From the sequence record NZ_LR134454.1: 64,000 nt of DNA; one strand, 5' to 3'. Shown here piece by piece: positions 36,173 to 54,000 of this stretch; position 1 is the first letter of the stretch, and each line of letters begins with the position of its first letter. The notes beneath the pieces were generated by a model that saw only the letters and a program-made list of their open reading frames with translations, did not search any database and was not told where the DNA came from. Origin of the DNA: a plasmid. Both the position numbers and the translations under genes were made by a program.

Positions 36173-37734
36173 TGTGCTCGTCCTCCGGTGCCGGCGGTGG
36201 TCGGTCTACCGCGAGAAAGTAGCACGGTCGCCCGGACTCTCCTCGCAGCCGACGAGGCCCGGGCAGGGCAGGGCTGTCTAGTCGCCGGGTCCCCCGCCGG
36301 AGCGTCGTCGGGACGGGGCTGCAGGGCGTGGGGCGGGTGGCCGGTGAGGTACTCGGGGCTGAGGAGCGACGCGAGGGTCGCCTCATCGAGGAGGGCCCGT
36401 TCGCGCACGATCTCGACGACCCCGCGCCCGGACTCGAGCGCCTCGGCGGCGACCGAGGTCGCGGCGGCGTAGCCGATGGTGGGGCTCAGTGCGGTGACGA
36501 CGCCGATGGACTCGCTCACCATCTGCTCCAACCGCTCCCGGTTCGCCGTGATCCCGGAGACGCAGCGCTCCCCGAGCACGCGGGCGCCGCGCGTGAGGTG
36601 CGCGATCGACTCGACCAGCGAGCGGGCGATGATCGGCTCGAAGGCGTTGAGCTGCAACTGCCCGCCCTCGGCGGCCATGGTGATGGTGACGTCGTGGCCG
36701 ATCACCTCGTAGGCGATCTGGTTCACCACCTCGGGGATGACGGGGTTGACCTTGCCCGGCATGATCGACGACCCGGCCTGCACCGCGGGCAGGTGGATCT
36801 CCGCGAGGCCGGCGCGCGGGCCGGACGACAGCAGCCGCAGGTCGTTGCAGGTCTTCGACAACTTCACCGCGATCCGCTTGAGCACGCCGGAGAGCTGGAC
36901 GAAGACGCCGACGTCGGCGGTCGCCTCGATGAGGTCGGTGGCGCCGACCAGTTCGTGAATGCCCGTGACCTCGCGCAGTTGCTCGATGACCTTGCGGCGG
37001 TAACCGGGGTGGGCGTTGAGGGCGGTGCCGATCGCGGTGCCGCCGATGTTGAGCTCGTGCAGCAGCCGAGTGGCCTCCTGCAGCCGCACGATGTCCTCGC
37101 CCAGCGTGGTGGCGAACGCGCCGAACTCCTGGCCGAGCGTCATCGGCACCGCGTCCTGGAGCTGGGTGCGGCCCATCTTGAGGATGCCCGCGAACTCGTC
37201 CGACTTCGCGGCGAAGGTGCCGCGCAGTTCCGTGAGCGCCTCGGCCAGCTCGGCGAGCTGGGTGATGAGGGCGATCTTGATCGCGGTCGGGTAGACGTCG
37301 TTGGTGCTCTGCCCCAGGTTCACGTGGTCGAGCGGGTGCAGCGCGGCGTAGTCGCCCTTCGGCCGGTCCAGGTGCTCCAGCGCGGCGTTCGCGATCACCT
37401 CGTTGGCGTTCATGTTCGTCGACGTGCCCGCGCCGCCCGCGATGGTGTCGACGACGAACCACTCGTGCAGCCCGCCGCCGCGGATCCGCTCGCACGCCGC
37501 GACGATCGCCGCGGACCGCTCCTCGTCGAGCAGGCCAAGCTGTCGATTGGCCGACGCCGCGGCCTGTTTCACTGCGGCCAGCGCGTGCACCAGGTGGGTG
37601 TGGATGGCGATGGGAACGCCGGTGATCGGGAAGTTCAGCAGCGCCCGGGCGGTGTGGGCGCCGTAGTAGGCGTCGGCGGGGACGTCGATGTCGCCGAGCA
37701 GGTCGTGCTCGCTGCGCGTCTGCGGAGAGGTCAT
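36169..37734 (-). CDS. aspA: Aspartate ammonia-lyase
   Basis: Fumarate-lyase signature GSSIMPGKVNPVIPEVVNQIAYEVIG; the PVIPEVVNQ context favours aspartase over fumarase C. Start MTSPQTRSEHDLLG. Carries a ~50-aa Pro/Ala/Arg-rich C-terminal extension beyond the usual ...LSPEYLTGHP ending. Confidence 0.85.
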   Translation of the reverse strand: MTSPQTRSEHDLLGDIDVPADAYYGAHTARALLNFPITGVPIAIHTHLVHALAAVKQAAASANRQLGLLDEERSAAIVAACERIRGGGLHEWFVVDTIAGGAGTSTNMNANEVIANAALEHLDRPKGDYAALHPLDHVNLGQSTNDVYPTAIKIALITQLAELAEALTELRGTFAAKSDEFAGILKMGRTQLQDAVPMTLGQEFGAFATTLGEDIVRLQEATRLLHELNIGGTAIGTALNAHPGYRRKVIEQLREVTGIHELVGATDLIEATADVGVFVQLSGVLKRIAVKLSKTCNDLRLLSSGPRAGLAEIHLPAVQAGSSIMPGKVNPVIPEVVNQIAYEVIGHDVTITMAAEGGQLQLNAFEPIIARSLVESIAHLTRGARVLGERCVSGITANRERLEQMVSESIGVVTALSPTIGYAAATSVAAEALESGRGVVEIVRERALLDEATLASLLSPEYLTGHPPHALQPRPDDAPAGDPATRQPCPARASSAARRVRATVLLSRGRPTTAGTGGRAQ

Positions 37735-37781
37735 CCGCTCATCCTTCCGCACCACCCTCCTCCGTCGGAGGATTTGCGGAA

Positions 37782-38087
37782 TCAGCCTGTGCGACCGGCC
37801 CGCCCGCTGTGCGGTTCCGCGGTGACCGGGACACCCGCGGTGGCGAAGACGTCCAGCACCTCGGAGTAGAGCTTCGCGCCGAGCGCGGTGCGGACCTCGT
37901 CGGCGTGCGTGAGGCGGAAGCCGAAGGGCTCGTCCTCCGGGGTGCCGAAGCCGCCGCGCAGGCAGTCGACGAGGGCGTCGAGGTTGCTGCCGAAGTAGCC
38001 GTCGGGGCCGTTCACCGCGCGCCCGAGCTCGGTGTAGAAGTCGGCCGCCCCGGTCACCCGGCTGCCGTCCACGGTGTAGGTCTTCAC
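37782..38087 (-). CDS. Barstar-like ribonuclease inhibitor
   Basis: 101 aa. FYTELGRAVNGPDGYFGSNLDALVDCL parallels barstar's YYGENLDALWDCL helix. Located 3 nt downstream of the ribonuclease gene. Confidence 0.6.
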   Translation of the reverse strand: MKTYTVDGSRVTGAADFYTELGRAVNGPDGYFGSNLDALVDCLRGGFGTPEDEPFGFRLTHADEVRTALGAKLYSEVLDVFATAGVPVTAEPHSGRAGRTG

Positions 38088-38090
38088 GTC

Positions 38091-38471
38091 TCAGGCTCCC
38101 GTCACGATGCAGAACGAGGCGTAGTGGTCGCCGGTGTAGTACAAGTTCGGCGGGGACGTGAGCGGCGTTCCGCCGGTGACGATCCGGCGTGCGCCGCGGG
38201 TCGACGAGCCGGGCGTCGGCACCGTGTACTCGTGGTAGTACCCCGAGGCCTGCGCGGGCAGGATCCCCTCCCGGTTCTGGAACACGACCCCGTCGTTGCG
38301 CGGGTACGGGAACGGACCGCCCTGATGGATGAGGTCGACGGTGTCGGCCGCCTGCGCGGGCAGGGACGACAACGCGCAGGAGGGCAGGGCGGCGGAGGCG
38401 GGGGAGACGGTCGCGACCGTGACGCCGAGCGCCACGACGACCGATCCCGCGAGGCGGGTTGCGATGCGCAT
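38091..38471 (-). CDS. Secreted guanyl-specific ribonuclease (RNase Sa / microbial N1-T1 family)
   Basis: Signal peptide, then LIHQGGPFPYPRNDGVVFQNREGILPAQASGYYHEYTVPTPGSSTRGARRIVTGG...YYTGDHYASF. This is nearly colinear with Streptomyces RNase Sa (GPFPYSQDGVVFQNRESVLP...YYHEYTV...RGTRRI...YYTGDHYATF), including the catalytic Glu/Arg/His positions. Confidence 0.8.
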   Translation of the reverse strand: MRIATRLAGSVVVALGVTVATVSPASAALPSCALSSLPAQAADTVDLIHQGGPFPYPRNDGVVFQNREGILPAQASGYYHEYTVPTPGSSTRGARRIVTGGTPLTSPPNLYYTGDHYASFCIVTGA

Positions 38472-38580
38472 GATCAGAAGTTAGCCGAAGTAGATGATCG
38501 CCGGGTGGCAGCGCGGTGAACGTCCTGGACCGGCTGCGCCGATGGGTCGCCGGGCGCCGGACCCGGCGATGGCCGGCGCC

Positions 38581-38860
38581 AGGTGGGGGACTCGGCTTCC
38601 GGTGGGGGGTGCCGGCGGCGGATGAGGGGCGTGGCGGCGTTTCCTGGGGGACTGAACGCTGGGTGGGGGAGGAGCCGGCTTCTGGTGGGGGATTCGGCGC
38701 CGCGTGGGGGACGTTCGCTCCCCCGCTCCACGACCGGCGTCCCGTGGGGGCGGGAACGCAGGGTGGGGGAGACGGCGATCGTTGGGGGACTGAACGTGTG
38801 GTGGGGGGGAGACGGCGATCGGCGGGGAACTGAGCGTGTGGTGGGGGTAGCGCGTCCGGG
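38581..38860. repeat. Degenerate G-run repeat region (>=12 runs of G5-G7, roughly every 20-25 bp) including a ~45-bp tandem duplication
   Basis: Recurring units gggtggggga (38661, 38761), gggggactgaacg (38646, 38784) and ggcttc(c/t)ggtggggg (38594, 38686). Tandem gagacggcgatcg-N-gggga-ctga-cgtgtggtggggg at ~38769-38813 and 38816-38858. Lies between the TetR 3' end and the RNase gene 5' end. Confidence 0.55.
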
Positions 38861-38861
38861 G

Positions 38862-39521
38862 CTACCTCTCGCGGGGGGTGTACGACGCCAGGCCCAGGGC
38901 GACGACGGTGAGCTGGCGGGTGGTGCGCTCGATGAGCTCCGCCTCGTCGCGGGTGTTGCGGGCGTCGATGCGCACCAGCTCGGCGACGAAGCCCAGCATG
39001 ATCGTGACGTAGAGGTCGGCGGTCATGTCGAGGTCCTCGACGCTCCACTCGCTCAGCGCGGGGATCCGCGAGAGGTCGTGGGTGAGCTCCTTGGCGAAGA
39101 GTCGCAGCTCGACGTCGATCGCGCGTTGCAGTTCGGGGGAGCCGCCGTAGCGCTCGCGCACGAGGAACTGGAACTCGGCGTCGTTGGCGCGGGCCTGCTT
39201 GGCGACGACGCGGATCGCCTCCGCGCCGCTCGGCGCCACGCCCTCGCGCCGGCCCTCGCGCAGCATGCGGCGCAGCACGCGCATCGCGTCCTCGACCAGG
39301 GTGACGCCGAGGTCGTCCATCGATGCGAAGTGGCGGTAGAAGGCGGTGGGCACCACGCCGGCCGCCTTGGCGACCTCGCGCAGCGACAGGCTCGCGAACG
39401 AGCGTTCACCGGCCAGGGCCAGCGCCTCGTCGAGCAGGGTCTGTCGCGTGCGCTCCTTGGCCTCCGCCCGCGACGGTCCCGGGGTGTGCCGTTCGACGGC
39501 GCGCGGGGACGGTCTGGGCAT
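38862..39521 (-). CDS. TetR-family transcriptional regulator, divergent from the desaturase operon
   Basis: HTH LSLREVAKAAGVVPTAFYRHFASMDDL; 219 aa. Confidence 0.8.
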   Translation of the reverse strand: MPRPSPRAVERHTPGPSRAEAKERTRQTLLDEALALAGERSFASLSLREVAKAAGVVPTAFYRHFASMDDLGVTLVEDAMRVLRRMLREGRREGVAPSGAEAIRVVAKQARANDAEFQFLVRERYGGSPELQRAIDVELRLFAKELTHDLSRIPALSEWSVEDLDMTADLYVTIMLGFVAELVRIDARNTRDEAELIERTTRQLTVVALGLASYTPRER

Positions 39522-51023: not shown

Positions 51024-54000
51024 TCAGTCCTGGTGCGGGGGACGCTGCTGGGGGCGCGGTCCCTCACCCGTCGGGCCCTGCGGGCGCGGACCCTGCGGCC
51101 CACCCGGGCCCTGAGGCCCCTGCGGACGCGGCGGGTACGGCTGGCGCGGACCCTGCGGACCGCCCTGCGGACCACCCGGCCGCTGCTGCCGCGGCAGCTG
51201 GCCGCTCGGTCCCTGGCCGATCGGACCGCTCGGGCGCGGTCCCTGGGGGCCGCCGGGGCCCTGCGGGCCGGGGGGCGGACCCTGACGGTGCCGCGAGGGC
51301 TGACCGGGAGCCTGCTGCGGGCCGCGGCCCGGAACCGGCTGCTGGTAGCTGCGCGGATCCTGCGGCGGGCGCTGCGTGGGCGCCGACGGGCGCGGCGGCA
51401 GCTCCAGCCGACCCGAGAAGCCGGGCGGCGGGCCGGGACGACGCGGGCCGGGGCCGACCGGGGTCGGCCGGGCCGGACGCACGTCGGGCAGGTTCGACGG
51501 CGGGTGGAGCCTGCCGTCCTCGGGCGCCGCGGGCGCGCGCGTGGCGGAGACCGGGGCACCGGCCCCGACGAGCTCCGGCGCGGCCTTGCCCGGCCCCGCG
51601 GTGGCGGGCTTGACCGACGACAGCGGGCGGCCGTCGCGGGTCTCGGCGGGCAGCGAGGTCTCGCCCAGGCCGACGGCCTCCTGGATCTTGCGCATCCACA
51701 GCGGAGCCCACCAGGAATCGTCGCCGAGCAGCTTCATCACCGCGGGCACGAGCACCATGCGGACGACGGTCGCGTCGATGAGCAGCGCGAACATCAGGCC
51801 GAAGGAGACGTATTTCAGCATCACCAGGTCGGACGTCGCGAACGCCGCCGCGACGCACGCGAGCAGCACGGCGGCCGCGGTGATGATCCGGCCGGTGTTG
51901 GCCGTGCCGGCGCGGATCGCCTGGTTCGTCGTGGCACCGCCCGCGCGTTCCTCGATCATGCGGGAGATGACGAAGACCTCGTAGTCCGTACTGAGGCCGA
52001 AGACCACCGCGATCACCAGCACCAGGACGGGCGCCATCATCGGGCCGCCGGTGAAGTTGAAGATGTCGCCGCCGTGGCCGTCGACGAACATCCAGGTCAG
52101 GAAGCCCAGCGTGGAGCCCAGCGACAGGAGCGACATCAGCACGGCCTTGATCGGCAGCGTCAGCGAGCCGAAGGCCAGGAACATCATCAACGTGGTGACC
52201 ACGACCAGCAGCAGCAGGAGCATCGGCAGCAGGCTCAGCATCGAGTCGATCGAGTCGTACTGCAGCACCGGCATGCCGCCGACCAGGAAGCCGACGCCCT
52301 TATCCGGGTCGGCCCCGTCCATCGTGATGCCGCGCAGTGCCGTCACCGCCTCGCCGACGGCCTTGGTGTCGTTCGGGTCCTGCATGCTGCCGTTGGACGT
52401 CCGCACCGAGACCTCCTGGCCGCGGACCTCGAGCTTGTCCGTCGTGCCCTTGGCGGTGGAGACGGCGTCGGTCGCCGCGCTGAACCGCGCGGAGTTCGGG
52501 TCCGCGGGGTTCGAGTGCGTGAAGCCGGGGATCTTGTTCGCCTCGTCGAGCACCTGCTTGATCTGCTCGTCGCTGGCGTTGGTGAAGACGATCTTGACCG
52601 GTTGGCCGGTATTGTCCGGGAACAGCTCCTGGAACTGGTCCTGCGCCTGCCGGGTCTCGTTGGTCGGCGGCAGGTAGGTCTGCGAGATGCCGCCGAACTG
52701 CAGGCCGACGATGGGGATGCAGATCGCGAGCAGCAGCGTCACGACGCCGACGATCGCGGCCTTCGGGCGCTTCATGACCGCGTCGGTCACCTTGCCCCAC
52801 ATGCCGGCCTCGATGTTGGCCTTCGTCTTCGCGCGGCCCGTCTTCTCGGCGGCCCAGTGGATGATGCCGCCGATGAGCGGCAGGTTCCACTTGTCGAAGA
52901 TGGTGAGGAACCAGTGGAAGCTCAGCGCGAAGACCCGCGGGCCGAGCACCGCCAGCATCGCGGGAAGCAGGGTCAGCGACAGGATCGCGGCGATGAAGAC
53001 GCCGAGCAGCGCGCCCGTGGCCATCGACGTGAGCAGGCCCAGCGGCGAGATGTAGAGACAGGCCAGGGCTCCGACGATGAGCAGCGACGACATGATGATC
53101 GTTCGGCCGGCGGTCATGACCGTGCGTCTGACCGCCGTGGGTGTGTCGTACCCCTCGTCCAGTTCCTCTCTGAACCGGGACACCATGAACAGGCCGTAGT
53201 CGTGGGCGATGCCCAGGCCGATCAGCGAGATGATCGGCCCGACGAACAGGTTGACGTCCGTGAAATCGGCCATCACCGAGGCGACCGCCATGGCGGCGCC
53301 GATGGTGAGCACACCGATGATCATCGGCAGCACCGCGGCGACGATGCCGCCGTAGACGAAGAAGAGCACGATCGCGACCAGCGGCAGCGCGATGATCTCG
53401 GCCTTCTTCTGGTCCTTCTGCACACCCTCGGTGACCTCCGAGGTCACGGGCACGAGTCCGGCCACCTGAGCCTCGAAGACCGGCTTGTTCGCCTCCGACC
53501 GCAGGATCTCCATGAGCGGCTGCTGGATCGACACCCAGTCCTTGCCGCGCTGGGTGTCGTCCGCCGACTTCATCGGCAGCGTGAAGAAGCCCCACGTGCC
53601 GCCGTCGGCGTCGGTGCGGGTGAACTTCTTGTACAGCGCGTCGTTCGCCTGGGGCGCACCCGGGGCGAACATCGTGTAGCTGAGCGAGCTCTCCTGCGGG
53701 TCCTTCTCGTTGACCGGGTTCAGCTTGGCGTCGTCGCCCGTCGCGAACTTCGCGAGGACGTCCTCGCGGGTCTTCGCGACCGCCTTCTCGACGTCAGCGT
53801 CGGAGATCTTCTTGCCCTCCGCGGGCTTGATCAGCACCAGGATGTCGGGCTGCATCTCGCGGCCGTTCGCCTTATCGGTGACCTGGGCGGCGGCGACGGA
53901 GTCGCTGGCCTCGTCGTAGAGGCCGTTCATCTTGGTCTTGGCACCCAGCCCGAGGAAGCCCCAGACGCCGGTCGCGGCGATGGACACGAAGAGGACCGCG

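Follow-up and report, generated by a model that had tools for sequence, protein, structure and literature searches.

The known systems closest to the locus reported here are the secreted guanine-specific ribonucleases (RNases) Sa, Sa2 and Sa3 of Streptomyces aureofaciens (Protein Data Bank (PDB) entries 1RGG, 1PY3 and 1MGR) and the barnase-barstar pair of Bacillus amyloliquefaciens (1BRS), in which a secreted RNase is accompanied by an acidic cytoplasmic inhibitor. The two systems meet in the complex 1AY7, where barstar inhibits RNase Sa. In Bacillus licheniformis, the RNase balifase is encoded in an operon with a barstar orthologue, and its expression is induced by phosphate starvation (PMC5021464). 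Furthermore, in their survey of polymorphic toxins, Zhang et al. 2012 describe "simple barnase-barstar gene pairs", Actinobacteria included, in which a stand-alone Tox-Barnase-like gene is followed by an Imm-Barstar gene (PMC3482391). Here we analyze a pair of this kind, an RNase gene followed by the gene of a barstar-family inhibitor, on the minus strand (positions 37,782 to 38,471) of a 64,000-nucleotide stretch of plasmid record NZ_LR134454.1, referred to below as the window.

Comparison with these systems indicates that the cassette encodes an exported guanine-specific RNase of the RNase Sa family and a cytoplasmic barstar-type inhibitor, co-transcribed and likely serving in extracellular RNA breakdown, a reading to which we assign a probability of roughly 90%. 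The analysis establishes the families, folds and residues of the two proteins, together with the order of the genes and its conservation. The initial annotation proved accurate on all points examined, and its identification of the two proteins is supported. It had placed the inhibitor gene 3 nt downstream of the RNase gene, and the list of open reading frames (ORFs) bears out both the two ORFs and their coordinates: a gap of 3 nt separates the RNase stop codon TGA (38091-38093) from the inhibitor GTG (38087), and the minus-strand junction reads …GGA GCC TGA GAC GTG AAG…. The architecture is the same as that of the simple pairs of Zhang et al. 2012 (PMC3482391), with no difference found, making the locus an instance of that class. 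The parts of the cassette are:

38091..38471, minus strand: RNase gene, encoding a 126-residue pre-protein, ATG start, stop codon included; RNase Sa family, PF00545
37782..38087, minus strand: gene of the barstar-family inhibitor, 101 residues, GTG start, stop codon included; PF01337
38391..38471, minus strand: predicted signal peptide of the RNase, codons 1-27, MRIATR / LAGSVVVALGVTVATV / SPASA, with predicted cleavage after Ala27; read by hand
38094..38390, minus strand: mature RNase domain, residues 28-126 (99 residues), from the alignment with RNase Sa and 120 homologues
38096..38100, minus strand: Shine-Dalgarno-like GGGAG for the inhibitor gene, within the 3' end of the RNase reading frame, 8 nt 5' of the GTG; GACGGGAGCCTGAGACGTGAAG

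The RNase matches the Pfam Ribonuclease profile (PF00545) with an E-value of 1.1e-25 and 90.5 bits (cut-off 24), over profile positions 11-95 of 98. When compared with PDB sequences, it scores best against RNase Sa3 (E=1.3e-33), followed by RNase Sa (approximately 5e-31) and RNase Sa2 (7e-26), and over the aligned residues it shares 61% identity with RNase Sa and 68% with Sa3. Its description as nearly colinear with Streptomyces RNase Sa holds, since the insertions relative to RNase Sa are merely one of 1 residue and one of 4 residues. It belongs to the same length class as the three Streptomyces enzymes and shares their catalytic and guanine-binding residues and their fold; unlike barnase, it lies in the Sa branch of the family and not in the barnase branch.

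Superposition of the sequences shows that Glu81, Arg92, Arg96, His116 and Tyr117 correspond to the catalytic Glu54, Arg65, Arg69, His85 and Tyr86 of RNase Sa, each of them being kept in 121-122 of the 122 aligned sequences. The guanine loop, Gln65-Asn66-Arg67-Glu68, is identical to residues 38-41 of RNase Sa (Gln38-Asn39-Arg40-Glu41). When the catalytic and guanine-loop positions are counted together, each is conserved in 110-122 of the 122 sequences, with the exception of Gln38, which is kept in 83. The numbering and the roles of these residues follow the established biochemistry of RNase Sa. The catalytic residues that the initial annotation reported are therefore present, with no loss of either Glu81 or His116 in the alignment.

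There are, however, differences from RNase Sa: the cysteines occupy Sa positions 6 and 90, a 4-residue insertion (G-T-P-L-T-S-P-P) lies in the 73-79 loop, and one residue is added after Tyr30. All three are common to most of the actinobacterial homologues that were retrieved and are thus traits of a subfamily. The cysteine pair, Cys32 and Cys121, does not align with Cys7-Cys96; this alternative pair is found in 117 of 122 homologues, and the Streptomyces-type Cys7-Cys96 disulfide positions, which are not matched in the RNase, are not a family-wide feature. In the AlphaFold model, Cys32 is part of the first strand (31-33) and Cys121 is part of the last (120-124), and from this arrangement it is plausible that the two form a disulfide differing from that of RNase Sa.

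The same model has a predicted local distance difference test score (pLDDT) above 94 across residues 28-126 and below 50 for residues 1-16. A Foldseek search with it returned RNase Sa, Sa2 or Sa3 for all of the top 31 PDB matches, and its superposition on these enzymes gives target-normalized template modeling (TM) scores of 0.86-0.91 and root-mean-square deviations of 1.1-1.8 Å. Among solved structures, the nearest is that of RNase Sa3, termed a "cytotoxic microbial ribonuclease" by its depositors. This raises the question as to whether the RNase might be a host-directed cytotoxin of an opportunistic pathogen, secreted to harm host cells as has been reported for RNase Sa3 and binase with mammalian cells in culture. 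However, the predicted mature RNase carries a net charge of approximately -1, and one study of RNase Sa variants ties their cytotoxicity to a requirement for positive charge (PMC4278273). The cassette is, moreover, common among environmental, non-pathogenic relatives, and we regard a cytotoxic role as hardly credible.

Two metagenomic relatives, P0001 (220 residues) and P0019 (180 residues), are tandem two-domain RNases. Their first domain is intact; in the second, Val replaces the catalytic Glu (YRVYTV) and the guanine loop reads Y-E-N-R-E. The second domain is possibly an inactive RNA-binding copy.

The second protein of the pair had been called barstar-like, and it proves to be so both by profile and by fold. 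The 101-residue ORF matches the Pfam Barstar profile (PF01337) with an E-value of 2e-15 and 57 bits, above the gathering score of 23.4, over profile positions 1-80 of 96. Like the match of the RNase to its profile, this lies well outside what chance would produce. A direct phmmer comparison with barstar in the PDB gave a weak match (E=1.2e-3), confined to residues 1-50. The AlphaFold model of the inhibitor (pLDDT 89.3, predicted TM score 0.80) has the secondary-structure elements of barstar in the same order, and the top 25 PDB matches found with Foldseek are all barstar, the top 20 having target-normalized TM scores of 0.70-0.79. Its final six residues (96-101) have a pLDDT below 50.

As in the barnase-barstar pair, a secreted RNase (by prediction) is thus combined with an acidic inhibitor of the same fold, whose net charge is approximately -5 and which is without a signal peptide. 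The barstar residues Tyr29, Asn33, Asp35 and Asp39, from the helix common to both inhibitors, correspond to Tyr31, Asn35, Asp37 and Asp41. Together with the equivalent of Gly43, these positions are invariant in 122 of 122 sequences, and the best-conserved segment of the family is Y-F-G-x-N-L-D-A-L-x-D-C-L-R-G-G-F-G-T-P. A DxxxD motif is the signature listed for Imm-Barstar (PMC3482391), in agreement with Asp37 and Asp41 of helix 2. In contrast to these conserved features, the inhibitor is only 21-27% identical to Bacillus barstar, Trp38, Trp44, Glu76 and Glu80 are not conserved, and the protein ends in a C-terminal tail of 16 residues that is predicted to be disordered.

The closest database proteins share 98% (RNase) and 99% (inhibitor) identity with the pair, and those with a named source belong to Tsukamurella tyrosinosolvens and other members of the genus (order Mycobacteriales). 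The genome is that of T. tyrosinosolvens or of a near relation. The window had been attributed to a mycolate actinobacterium, which agrees with this origin of the nearest proteins. NCBI already names the two proteins "ribonuclease domain-containing protein" or "ribonuclease" and "barstar family protein", respectively. The kind of cassette is therefore known, is annotated in RefSeq for Tsukamurella, and is common in Mycobacteriales and other Actinomycetota. Its significance is small beyond correct annotation, and current understanding is left unchallenged. The literature that was searched contained no characterized Tsukamurella or mycobacterial member, and it seems that none from a mycolate-containing genus has been characterized experimentally. 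Wet-lab work could thus provide a modest first description, addressing export across the mycomembrane and lipoprotein versus free forms.

In order to place the pair among its relatives, one genome per species was scanned with the inhibitor profile. The scan yielded at least 563 confirmed relatives, of which the best 80 species loci were analyzed, from Tsukamurella, Mycobacteroides, Mycolicibacterium, Williamsia, Gordonia and other genera. In 79 of these 80, the inhibitor gene is immediately preceded by an RNase gene in the same orientation. Within Tsukamurella, the gene order desaturase, reductase, TetR regulator, RNase, inhibitor, aspartase is kept, and both proteins are 74-99% identical among the species. 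The flanking genes in Mycobacteroides and Mycolicibacterium are unlike those of Tsukamurella. As the flanks vary between genera while the pair remains constant, it is the two-gene cassette that constitutes the conserved unit.

The N-terminus of the RNase consists of MRIATR, with two positive charges, followed by LAGSVVVALGVTVATV, which comprises 16 uncharged hydrophobic residues, and SPASA, with Ala at positions -3 and -1. By rules applied by hand, not by a trained predictor, this pattern is consistent with the general secretory (Sec) pathway and cleavage by signal peptidase I, and the predicted cleavage point coincides with the start of mature RNase Sa in the alignment. No twin-arginine motif was found in the N-terminus. 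The sequence LPSC ahead of Cys32 was not counted as a lipobox, since the Pro at position -2 departs from what we take to be the lipobox consensus. A signal peptide had also been claimed initially, in accordance with the hand rules, the conserved cysteine pair and the exported N-termini of all orthologues examined.

The N-termini of the orthologues at the 80 loci fall into three types. A cleavable signal for signal peptidase I is found in Tsukamurella, Williamsia and Gordonia. A lipobox, such as LLSGC or LIGC, is present in at least 31 loci, chiefly from Mycolicibacterium and its relatives, with single loci also from Smaragdicoccus, Gordonia, Microlunatus and a Nocardiaceae metagenome-assembled genome (MAG); a linker rich in Pro, Ser, Thr and Ala often follows. 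Finally, many Mycobacterium and uncultured Actinomycetota MAGs possess an apparently uncleaved membrane anchor (RRRLALVALCALIVIVGGW). Judging from these sequences, all three types would leave the RNase domain facing outward. If the enzyme is indeed free in some genera, lipid-anchored in others and membrane-anchored in still others, then the same enzyme would work over differing distances.

These N-termini bear directly on the possibility that the pair is a cytoplasmic type II toxin-antitoxin system or an anti-phage abortive-infection module. A small cassette of two genes, for an RNase and a protein inhibitor, would suit such a system, and the difference in context between genera could indicate mobility. 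Yet an export signal is carried by the RNase of every orthologue examined, and the conserved cysteine pair is typical of extracytoplasmic proteins. In addition, the inhibitor gene is the downstream one, and its product has no DNA-binding or other second domain. NCBIfam and PADLOC each gave zero matches for the RNase or the inhibitor, the latter being a further argument against a defense module, as is the base composition of the gene pair, which resembles that of the surrounding genome. An intracellular toxin or defense role is thus extremely improbable.

A second alternative would keep the RNase outside the producing cell: the two genes might form an interbacterial toxin-immunity pair, the RNase being delivered into competitors and the barstar-like protein shielding siblings. 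Barnase-type domains and Imm-Barstar do serve polymorphic toxin systems, Actinobacteria included, and there they occur in the same order of toxin followed by immunity gene (PMC3482391). The RNase, however, comprises no more than a signal peptide of 27 residues and the RNase domain of 99, with no LXG, WXG, RHS or other trafficking module. A single inhibitor gene is present, with the aspartase gene next to it, in place of an array of cassettes, and the neighbors encode a TetR regulator, a desaturase, a reductase and an aspartase, with no secretion-system genes among them. Nor is the locus hypervariable, being syntenic among Tsukamurella species at the protein identities given above. It is, furthermore, not apparent how a free RNase of 11 kDa would cross a cell envelope, whether of the mycolate type or another. 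Of the hallmarks of polymorphic toxins, namely a trafficking domain, repeats and alternative toxin/immunity cassettes, none was found at the RNase locus, and a role as an interbacterial weapon is very unlikely.

Interbacterial antagonism or nutrient scavenging had been suggested initially as the role of the pair. The evidence leans toward a free secreted enzyme with an inhibitor for self-protection, because there is no delivery domain, only one inhibitor gene, a syntenic and non-polymorphic locus in Tsukamurella, and no PADLOC match.

Expression of such an enzyme can be considered from the region 5' of the RNase gene, which was compared among eight Tsukamurella loci. The 55 nt preceding the RNase ATG are conserved in all eight, and the sequence farther upstream varies. 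Within the conserved region, the blocks TTCACC (-49 to -44), GCCAC and CTAAyTT (6-8 nt 5' of the ATG) are invariant, and two Williamsia loci also carry TTCACC at a comparable distance. Two features of this region are:

38478..38483, minus strand: -10-like hexamer TAACTT, 6 nt 5' of the RNase ATG, conserved in the 8 Tsukamurella loci; candidate promoter
38515..38520, minus strand: TTCACC block, invariant in the 8 Tsukamurella loci; candidate regulator site

If the A of the ATG is the start of transcription, TAACTT occupies positions -12 to -7 and agrees with TANNNT, the actinobacterial -10 pattern. No purine-rich Shine-Dalgarno sequence lies between TAACTT and the RNase ATG; the inhibitor gene and aspA each have one. 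With a -10-like element at the ATG and no Shine-Dalgarno sequence for the RNase, we infer that the RNase mRNA is leaderless or nearly so.

Together, these features point to a scheme in which export, disulfide formation, coupling, a leaderless start, inhibition and physiological role are all inferred. Both genes would be co-transcribed from a promoter just 5' of the RNase ATG, the mRNA probably having little or no leader. Translational coupling would then provide inhibitor whenever RNase is produced, because the GTG lies 3 nt past the RNase stop codon, behind the GGGAG inside the RNase ORF, which is the putative functional Shine-Dalgarno sequence of the inhibitor gene. The 126-residue precursor would be exported by the Sec pathway and cut after Ala27, and the 99-residue enzyme would fold extracellularly, probably with the Cys32-Cys121 disulfide. 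Any RNase that folds prior to export would be blocked at its active site by the acidic inhibitor, via helix 2 (Tyr31, Asp37 and Asp41). Outside the cell, single-stranded RNA would be cleaved 3' of guanine via a 2',3'-cyclic phosphate, with Glu81 acting as the general base, His116 as the general acid, Arg92 and Arg96 binding the phosphate, and Gln65-Glu68 recognizing the base. The likely use would be the degradation of extracellular RNA for nucleotides or phosphate. The balifase-YrdF operon of B. licheniformis (PMC5021464) similarly has the order of RNase followed by barstar orthologue, yet it belongs to another phylum and its RNase to another branch, and the induction by phosphate starvation shown for balifase is a conjecture for the Tsukamurella pair.

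Several observations weigh against this reading. The signal peptide was called by hand rules alone. In the inhibitor, Thr takes the place of barstar Glu76, a secondary acidic contact (across the family, this position is Thr in 38, Asp in 38 and Glu in 17 of 122 sequences), and Trp38 and Trp44 are replaced by Val and Gly; as a result of these changes, affinity and contact details may differ from those of the Bacillus pair. Consensus scans, comprising a simple sigma-70 promoter scan and a terminator scan, returned no promoter and no terminator, and the proposed promoter is therefore drawn solely from cross-species conservation. Co-transcription may also extend further, as the ATG of aspA (37734) lies 47 nt 3' of the inhibitor gene with no terminator found between them. 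No feature of the window ties expression of the RNase to phosphate, and the literature that was searched yields no experimental evidence on the RNase or on any Mycobacteriales orthologue.

As had been noted initially, a repeat region adjoins the cassette. The array occupies 38555-38861, in the 390-bp intergenic spacer from the TetR stop (38862) to the RNase ATG (38471). Its approximately 13 units measure 18-22 nt each, apart from one of 40 nt, and on the minus strand the majority start with CCCCCA(C). Two unit subtypes alternate, giving a super-period of 40 nt, and one 40-nt unit contains a C5...G5 inverted repeat. The spacer differs among relatives: in T. strandjordii, Tsukamurella sp. 1534, T. 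conjunctivitidis and T. sputi, it measures 53-128 bp and contains no such units; a record labeled T. paurometabola has 105 bp with 1-2 C5 runs, T. asaccharolytica has 277 bp, and strains of T. tyrosinosolvens have 435-550 bp. In the metagenome ERZ941748, array units are found at four or more other loci (L093, L097/L099, L110 and L112), and the same metagenome also holds the RNase locus at 99% identity (L109). Because its units recur at these other loci, the array looks like a copy of a dispersed repeat family of Tsukamurella, similar to repetitive extragenic palindromes (REP) or mycobacterial interspersed repetitive units (MIRU), inserted upstream of the conserved promoter region and forming no part of the RNase cassette.

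A dedicated regulatory role of the array for the RNase was considered and rejected as the principal interpretation, given the units at other loci and the lack of the array in several species. A more far-reaching reading would have a leaderless cassette controlled by a conserved TTCACC operator, for example by a phosphate-responsive OmpR-family regulator such as RegX3, with the upstream array, which varies among species and is G-rich on its opposite strand, modulating or insulating expression. Were this true, RNase output would differ between strains. TTCACC does recall what we take to be the core of phosphate-regulator boxes. A search of the window for TTCACC-N5-GCCAC with at most one mismatch gave 4 sites against 1.1 expected, only the site 5' of the RNase being exact, and showed no convincing enrichment of the motif elsewhere in the window. 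As there is a single exact site, upstream of the RNase, no evidence of a regulon emerges. The operator reading is unlikely.

In the T. tyrosinosolvens strains, a tandem array of the heptamer CAGCGG(T/C), in approximately 3-17 copies, separates the TetR stop from the C5-run array (L007:2066-2617, L008:2134-2615 and L009:2181-2617, the same site as approximately 38840-38861 of the window). It is a strain-variable variable-number tandem repeat (VNTR), and the window contains none of it. Three short-read assemblies (L010, L013 and L014) break off at most a few hundred bp upstream of the RNase.

Other upstream elements were seen in individual loci or clades. In L001, the promoter-proximal region contains the inverted repeat GGTGAACG-N6-CGTTCACC. 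The loci L023-L046, of the Mycolicibacterium fortuitum/porcinum type, share a strongly conserved GTCACTCTGTTCACTCGAGTAACGATCGTCGCAC approximately 100-130 nt upstream of the RNase start, followed by TTGACCC..GGATTTG and then by TTGCTAGCCT 7 nt before the ATG, with a -10-like TAGCCT at the start codon; this block may reflect shared ancestry and not function. Enrichment of 6-mers in the sequence 5' of the RNase in 70 non-Tsukamurella loci brought up GTTCACTCGAGTAACGATCGTC, which was set aside, as it is limited to one Mycolicibacterium clade and is probably a product of shared ancestry.

A search of positions 37400-39100 against Rfam gave only a chance match below threshold (sX9, 20 bits versus a gathering score of 44). 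No second copy of the RNase (by tblastn) or of barstar exists in the 64-kb window. A weak tblastn match at 14114-14281 (E=0.028) was rejected as spurious, since it falls within a Ser/Thr kinase ORF. This ORF, at 13832-15910 on the plus strand, encodes 692 residues, in which an N-terminal Ser/Thr kinase-like sequence is followed by a linker rich in Pro and Gly, a membrane segment and, at the C-terminus, an extracellular domain. Lastly, positions 51030-51450 of the window are G/C-rich and hold many short repeats of the CGGACCCTG and GGGCCCTG type, which are unrelated to the C5-run array; the region has the appearance of a minus-strand coding repeat rich in Pro and Gly.

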